A program made the position numbers and the translations under genes. From Escherichia coli (GTDB lineage: Bacteria; Pseudomonadota; Gammaproteobacteria; Enterobacterales; Enterobacteriaceae): 64,000 nucleotides of DNA. The stretch lies in assembly GCF_024700885.2 (NCBI RefSeq), contig NZ_CP117016.1. The stretch is one strand, 5' to 3'. Positions 1,841 through 2,475 of the stretch are shown one piece after another (the first letter of the stretch is position 1; the number at the start of each line of letters is the position of its first letter). The notes under the pieces are model-generated. The model ran no database searches. It was given only the letters and a program-made list of their open reading frames with translations, and was not told the origin of the DNA.

Positions 1841-2475
1841 ATGAAAATTCTCCATATCGATAGCAGTCCAATGCTTAAGCATTCAAGTTCGCGGAGCGGA
1901 AATTAAGCCAGGCGCTGGTAGAAGCGCTTTGCCAACGTTTCGCGCAAGCCACAATTATTCATCGCGACGTTGGCCTGACGCCCCCACCCCATTTGCGTGA
2001 AGAAACCTTTCTGGCGCTTTGCGGTAAAGCGGAGTGCGAGAACGCACAAATTCAGCAGGAGGTGAATGATATCCACGCTGCTATTGATGAACTGGCATCG
2101 TGCGATGTGCTCATTATTGGCGCGCCGATGATTAATCACAGCGTTTCATCTGGCCTCAAAACCTGGATAGATCAGGTCTGTCAGGCTGGTTTAACGTTTC
2201 GTTTTACTTCCGCTGGTGCCGTTGGGTTACTGACGGATAAACCGACGTTTATTGTCTCGACGCGCGGCGGTATCTATTGCGATGAAGCACATCTGGCGCT
2301 GGATCATCAGGAAAGTTATCTGCAAGCCACGCTGAAATTAATGGGCATTACCAATACACATATTTTACGTGCGGAAGGCGTCGACAAAACCCAACCGGGA
2401 CGCGAACTCGCCGAGCAAAATGCATTAGCGCAAATCCCTGATCTCATAACACACGTATTTAATCATTATCTTTAA
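1841..2475 (+). pseudogene. AzoR/AcpD-family FMN-dependent NADH azoreductase-like gene, frameshifted
   Basis: ATG at 1841 gives MKILHIDSSPMLKHSSSRSGN then stop at 1904-1906; the rest of the flavodoxin-fold protein continues in another frame (track ORF 1993..2475); N-terminus aligns with E. coli AzoR [25 protein letters not shown]. Confidence 0.7.

Follow-up and report, generated by a model that had tools for sequence, protein, structure and literature searches.

The azoR-like gene of Escherichia coli MLI114 is interrupted by a 5-bp tandem duplication of GCGGA. It is highly probable that this is a genuine frameshift pseudogene specific to one clone, with the duplication having arisen in an ancestor of the ST-349 clone to which MLI114 belongs, an enzyme that is expected to be dead, and a loss that is tolerated. 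Tolerance is expected because the gene is accessory and practically every E. coli also has a canonical azoR. MLI114, an ESBL isolate, was recovered from a stool sample of a soldier on deployment in Mali and was assigned to ST-349 in the Achtman scheme (PMC10198576 supplement). The stretch of DNA analysed here, referred to as the window, is 64 kb long and corresponds to the reverse complement of NZ_CP117013.1 990504-1054503 (64000/64000 bases). The coordinates of the features in and around the gene are listed in Table 1.

The original prediction was that the reading frame opens, runs into a stop at 1904-1906 and continues one frame over, with GCGGA present twice in tandem at the switch. The sequence reads exactly so. 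Translation from the ATG at 1841, which is preceded by GAGAG, gives MKILHIDSSPMLKHSSSRSGN and then meets the TAA at 1904-1906. The first copy of GCGGA occupies 1891-1895 and the second 1896-1900, and the remaining protein is encoded in frame +2 (equivalent to -1), which stays open to the TAA at 2473-2475. One uninterrupted ORF covering the whole Flavodoxin_2 domain was not found in MLI114, as the native frame stops after 21 codons. When one GCGGA was deleted in silico, a 630-nt ORF was obtained, whose 209-aa product matches the intact allele WP_000697439.1, as annotated in GN06156 and SCU-102, at every residue. As anticipated, removal of a copy restored an AzoR-like N-terminus, which aligns without gaps to both E. 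coli AzoR and PpAzoR. That the repeat is statistically unusual by itself was rejected, with 69 exact perfect 5+5 tandems observed in the 64-kb window versus approximately 62 expected by chance. Since such a tandem is unremarkable alone, the argument was built on a comparison across genomes. Just upstream of the duplication lies a perfect 14-bp palindrome, AATGCTTAAGCATT, at 1870-1883, and the TTAAGC just downstream (1903-1908) is complementary to the GCTTAA within this palindrome.

Table 1. Position, strand and state of the features discussed (window coordinates).
Feature	Position	Strand	Remarks
LysR-family regulator	844..1740	-	divergent; Pfam HTH_1 + LysR_substrate
Imperfect dyad with ATTGTT-N10-AACAAT	1735..1770	.	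divergent 100-bp intergenic region; 13-nt arms, 77% complementary
Disrupted azoR-like gene (Flavodoxin_2 family paralogue)	1841..2475	+	pseudogene in MLI114; intact allele 630 nt / 209 aa
Residual 21-codon ORF	1841..1906	+	18 native residues + SGN, then TAA
Lesion GCGGA GCGGA, 5-bp tandem duplication	1891..1900	+	+5 nt, frameshift after codon 18
RefSeq/PGAP model WP_321162279.1, "FMN-dependent NADH-azoreductase"	1915..2475	+	186-aa CDS from CTG, no pseudogene flag
TTG-start 160-aa ORF	1993..2475	+	product of other gene callers from the duplicated allele
DUF1471 (YdgH/BhsA/McbA-like) small secreted protein gene	2492..2752	+	intact; PF07338, E 1.8e-9
Strong hairpin	2768..2792	+	between DUF1471 and NOX-like genes; no T-tract
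441-aa NOX-family membrane flavocytochrome gene	2814..4139	+	intact, third module gene; Pfam Ferric_reduct, FAD_binding_8, NAD_binding_1

A comparison with orthologous loci had been proposed as a check in the original prediction. A 90-bp probe spanning the duplication junction matched 246 complete E. coli genomes; only MLI114 itself (1/246) showed 100% identity, while the other 245 carry a single GCGGA and aligned with a 5-nt gap. Likewise, the query for the azoR-like gene spans 735 bp in other genomes versus 740 bp with the duplication, and GN06156 and many further genomes are identical to the 740-bp query apart from these 5 nt, so the intact ancestral allele is found in close relatives that differ by the indel only. 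GN06156 is the closest complete genome. Over positions 1-25000 of the window, 8 SNPs and two indels set it apart, namely the 5-bp duplication and a 1-bp deletion at approximately 11098; within the azoR-like gene the GCGGA duplication is the only indel. The exact sequence of WP_000697439.1 was present on at least 1000 contigs. MLI121, reported to differ from MLI114 by 14 cgMLST alleles, was not among the top matches in the complete genomes.

The original prediction had left open whether the gene is inactivated in this strain or the assembly is wrong at this position. An artefact would mean that the true MLI114 sequence has one GCGGA and an intact gene, and three observations could be read in this way: among 246 complete genomes the duplication is confined to MLI114 itself, the backbone of its assembly was built from Nanopore R9.4.1 reads, and a second frameshift within the window affects srsR. 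The duplicated allele GCGGAGCGGA was, however, recovered from independent assemblies, namely Logan SRR30129151, Logan SRR28428910 and NCBI GCA_044019275.1, that is, from all loci for which DNA was returned. The two Logan assemblies are derived from reads, and SRR28428910 differs from the window by one SNP at 2908, which marks it as a dataset or isolate different from MLI114. It is the only one of the three that is demonstrably different: SRR30129151 and GCA_044019275.1 show no difference from the window wherever they were compared, so that they could stem from a single isolate or from isolates that are very closely related. GCA_044019275.1 is identical to the window over 1-12475, including the 1-bp deletion in srsR, and this deletion common to both assemblies also argues against a sequencing error. 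In addition, the MLI114 assembly was produced with Trycycler on the Nanopore R9.4.1 reads, treated with medaka, polished with Illumina reads (Polypolish) and cross-validated against SKESA and Unicycler. An exact 5-bp duplication is moreover atypical as a long-read error. Given the duplicated allele in independent datasets and the short-read polishing, we rejected an assembly error, to which hardly any probability can still be assigned; it is the inactivated gene that stood.

The shorter products called from the duplicated allele were also found on other contigs. The 186-aa product was present on 20 contigs and the 160-aa product on approximately 107 contigs (NCBI, ENA, MGnify, Logan), and both of the latter loci for which DNA was returned contain the duplication. 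The GCGGA duplication is thus clone-wide and not private to one isolate. In the proposed course of events, GCGGA would have been converted to GCGGAGCGGA in codons 17-19 in the ancestor of the ST-349 clone that includes MLI114, with replication slippage or misrepair as the likely cause. Together with the 1-bp deletion in srsR, the duplication provides a simple marker of this ST-349 sub-clone.

Precise reversion of a tandem duplication is possible in principle, and the stop codon right after the shift site could pause ribosomes. Both points might favour regulated recoding or a reversible switch, either as programmed -1 frameshifting near A-AAT-TAA or as phase variation by gain and loss of GCGGA. 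Against this, the duplicated site is absent in 245 of the 246 genomes and restricted to the MLI114 clone, so the configuration is not conserved among orthologues as expected of a programmed frameshift, and no canonical slippery heptamer was seen on reading the sequence. Nor does the locus behave as a phase-variable contingency locus, since GCGGA occurs in one copy in 245 genomes and in two copies in one clone, and a longer variable tract was never observed. The carriers of the duplication are near-identical, consistent with one clonal event. Lacking both conservation and a repeat tract, programmed frameshifting and phase variation were rejected and have a probability close to negligible. A single inherited frameshift mutation remains the preferred explanation.

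The repaired protein matched Pfam Flavodoxin_2 (PF02525) along its full length (residues 1-192, 140.2 bits vs a cut-off of 27, E 9.3e-41). The NCBIfam AzoR cut-offs were not reached (NF010075, 72.8 vs 188; NF002370, 49.5 vs 143; NF010074, 46.4 vs 432), which identifies the protein as an AzoR-like paralogue and not as a curated AzoR equivalog. Among proteins of known structure, PpAzoR (4c0w) was matched over residues 1-198 with E 2e-29 and E. coli AzoR (1v4b/1tik) with E 1e-22. This similarity to solved AzoR structures extends from end to end and includes the Ser-rich loop and the APM.N motif. In the alignment with AzoR sequences S17, A93, P94, M95 and N97 are invariant, and S8, S9, S15 and S17 make up the aligned Ser-rich block, in which S8, S9 and S17 are identical in both.

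E. coli AzoR (b1412), an FMN-dependent NADH:quinone oxidoreductase/azoreductase (PDB 1V4B/2Z98), belongs to the same Flavodoxin_2 fold family and is of similar length. Its N-terminus aligns gaplessly with the paralogue, and the two have the SS...S.S block and the APM.N motif in common. Nevertheless, their sequences are only 32.5% identical, and the canonical azoR is a separate core gene present in 5417/5426 complete E. coli genomes, whereas the paralogue was detected in 247/5426, in every case on the chromosome. Unlike E. coli AzoR, the paralogue lies within a LysR/DUF1471/NOX-like module and is frameshifted in MLI114. The best solved relative is PpAzoR of Pseudomonas putida MET94 (4C0W), with 36.3% identity over 179 residues and closely similar N-termini (MKLLHIDSS vs MKILHIDSS). 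PpAzoR comes, however, from another organism and another genomic context. Judged by these comparisons, the azoR-like gene encodes an accessory paralogue of AzoR and is distinct from the canonical azoR. FMN binding and NAD(P)H-dependent reduction of azo compounds or quinones are putative activities of its intact product, as predicted from the family.

In proteins of the flavodoxin-like/AzoR family, the β1-α1 loop is where the FMN phosphate is bound. In an AF2 model of the intact 209-aa protein (pLDDT 80.6, pTM 0.82), β1 spans residues 2-7 and is followed by the loop (8-15), α1 (16-31) and β2 (36-41), and β1 and the Ser-rich loop are cut off from the remaining fold by the frameshift after codon 18. 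Gln16 was described near the FMN phosphate in the indigo reductase of B. smithii, a homologue (PMC8255831), and a five-stranded flavodoxin-like sheet has also been described (PMC3903626). As this literature on N-terminal FMN-phosphate contacts in AzoR offers indirect support only, the role of the loop rests on family knowledge, the alignment and the AF2 model. Translation from the native ATG would end after 21 codons, leaving the remaining 188 codons out of frame and with no canonical start codon preceded by a Shine-Dalgarno sequence. The first ATG, GTG or TTG in the frame of the remainder is the TTG at 1993, which corresponds to residue 50. Any product restarted there or at CTG 1915 would be devoid of β1, the central strand, and of the conserved, Ser-rich loop between β1 and α1, and given that the FMN phosphate is bound by this loop, the enzyme is expected to be dead. 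Loss of function of the duplicated allele is therefore very likely, as suggested by the missing β1 and loop and by the lack of a good restart signal.

The original prediction named a different validated gene model at the same nucleotide sequence as a finding that would speak against it. Such a model exists in RefSeq, where PGAP annotated a CDS and not a pseudogene, but the CTG-start CDS is an annotation work-around that masks the frameshift and not a validated alternative. If the model were right, translation starting at CTG 1915, perhaps through re-initiation past the stop at 1904-1906, would yield a 186-aa enzyme that functions despite its shortened N-terminus. The CTG sits 9 nt past the stop codon, which makes termination-reinitiation conceivable, and the product would keep most of the Flavodoxin_2 domain. 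However, CTG initiates translation only very weakly in E. coli, and no Shine-Dalgarno-like motif at proper spacing was found for CTG 1915 or for TTG 1993. The product from CTG 1915 begins at native residue 24, which the AF2 model places midway along helix α1, and so would be made without β1, the Ser-rich loop and half of α1, that is, without the core strand of the sheet and the N-terminal block that is conserved best. The ATG at 1841, moreover, is the start used in 245 genomes. With no Shine-Dalgarno-like motif and with β1 and the Ser-rich loop lost, we consider it very unlikely that the CTG-start CDS is a real gene. Because the frameshift is masked in RefSeq by WP_321162279.1 (about 20 assemblies), pangenome and presence-absence analyses would wrongly score the azoR-like gene as intact.

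The disrupted gene was correctly predicted to be the first of a module. A divergent LysR gene, the azoR-like gene, a DUF1471 gene and a NOX-like gene form a compact module between rpiA and argP, in which 16 nt separate the broken gene from the DUF1471 gene and 61 nt separate the latter from the NOX-like gene. The NOX-like protein combines a ferric-reductase transmembrane domain with FAD and NAD domains. Among proteins of known structure, the NADPH oxidase SpNOX of Streptococcus pneumoniae (8qq7/8qt6, E 4e-26) is the best relative of this protein, and NOX5 was matched as well. An E. coli NOX homologue, L2VL28 of strain KTE10, was reported by Hajjar et al. 2017. The NOX-like, azoR-like and DUF1471 genes appear to be an uncharacterised operon-like unit under the LysR regulator. 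The dyad in the divergent intergenic region is a candidate LysR-type binding site, based on its sequence. The near-perfect hairpin downstream of the DUF1471 gene (GGAGCATGGAAT T ATTCCATGCTCC) has a folded stem of 11 bp and a free energy of -18.8 kcal/mol (z -4.55; 0/200 shuffles equally stable) and is not followed by a T-tract on either strand. Possible roles of this hairpin are attenuation, RNA stabilisation or, as a palindrome, protein binding. A promoter and terminator scan of 1650-4250 returned counts equal to the shuffled expectation. Carriers of the duplication are natural mutants of the first gene of this module, and a polar effect of the mutation that lowers the expression of the DUF1471 and NOX-like genes is possible.

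MLI114 is not the only strain in which the azoR-like gene is broken. In strain AF10 (NZ_OZ546911.1), an IS1A element is inserted at about nt 436 of the gene, and the flanking matches overlap by 9 bp (query 528-536), consistent with a target-site duplication. In GCA_034317805.1, the gene carries a 1-bp deletion at nt 141. The three mutations differ in kind and position (nt 436, nt 141 and nt 51-60 in MLI114) and were thus independent events. Protein clusters also contained several C-terminally truncated azoR-like products with unrelated C-terminal tails, which we presume to be IS1-derived. An IS5-like ISKpn26 is annotated in AF10 approximately 220 bp downstream of the DUF1471 gene, where other strains have the NOX-like gene; the module of this strain was hence struck by two insertion sequences, IS1A and ISKpn26.

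In K-12 MG1655, a segment of 3.1 kb corresponding to 1037-4153 of the window is absent and approximately 123 unrelated bases are found instead. Besides the azoR-like and DUF1471 genes, this segment contains the 5' portion of the LysR gene and the greater part of the NOX-like gene. With the azoR-like gene as a probe, the module was detected in only 247/5426 complete genomes. The K-12 pseudogene yqfE, located at the same rpiA/argP site, matches the 3' approximately 190 bp of the LysR gene of the module. It is accordingly a remnant of this gene and another decay product of the same module. While K-12 has lost the azoR-like, DUF1471 and NOX-like genes, MLI114 keeps all of them, the first with a 5-bp insertion.

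The azoR-like gene has therefore been knocked out recurrently, by a 5-bp duplication, a 1-bp deletion, IS1 insertions and, in most lineages, deletion of the whole module. Losses that recur in such different forms agree with a relaxed constraint on an accessory gene that is redundant. The possibility that the loss was selected and not neutral appears improbable to us. If it were selected, the benefit might lie in a weaker reductive activation of, for example, nitro, azo or quinone compounds, or alternatively in a polar effect that turns down the superoxide-generating NOX-like protein encoded downstream. The recurrence of the loss was observed directly; it does not separate selection from relaxed constraint, and positive selection is not supported. 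The lesion in MLI114 can be seen as routine decay of an accessory gene, an ordinary pseudogene of little wider significance.

Other frameshifts were noted elsewhere in the window. The LysR-family gene srsR (ygfI; 10734-11629, minus strand) has a 1-bp deletion at approximately 11098 (AACGGCG to AACGCG relative to GN06156) and is flagged as frameshifted by PGAP; as GCA_044019275.1 has the same deletion, the clone carries two frameshifts within 10 kb. The gene yqgD (37149-37399, minus strand) is likewise flagged as frameshifted in MLI114 by PGAP. Between speA and speB, an ORF of 243 aa (33808-34539, minus strand) has a lipoprotein-like N-terminus (LLAGCSS) and matched no Pfam family. At least 80% of a 951-bp query covering this region (33700-34650) was matched in 3550/5426 complete genomes, and the ORF is annotated as a hypothetical protein or lipoprotein.
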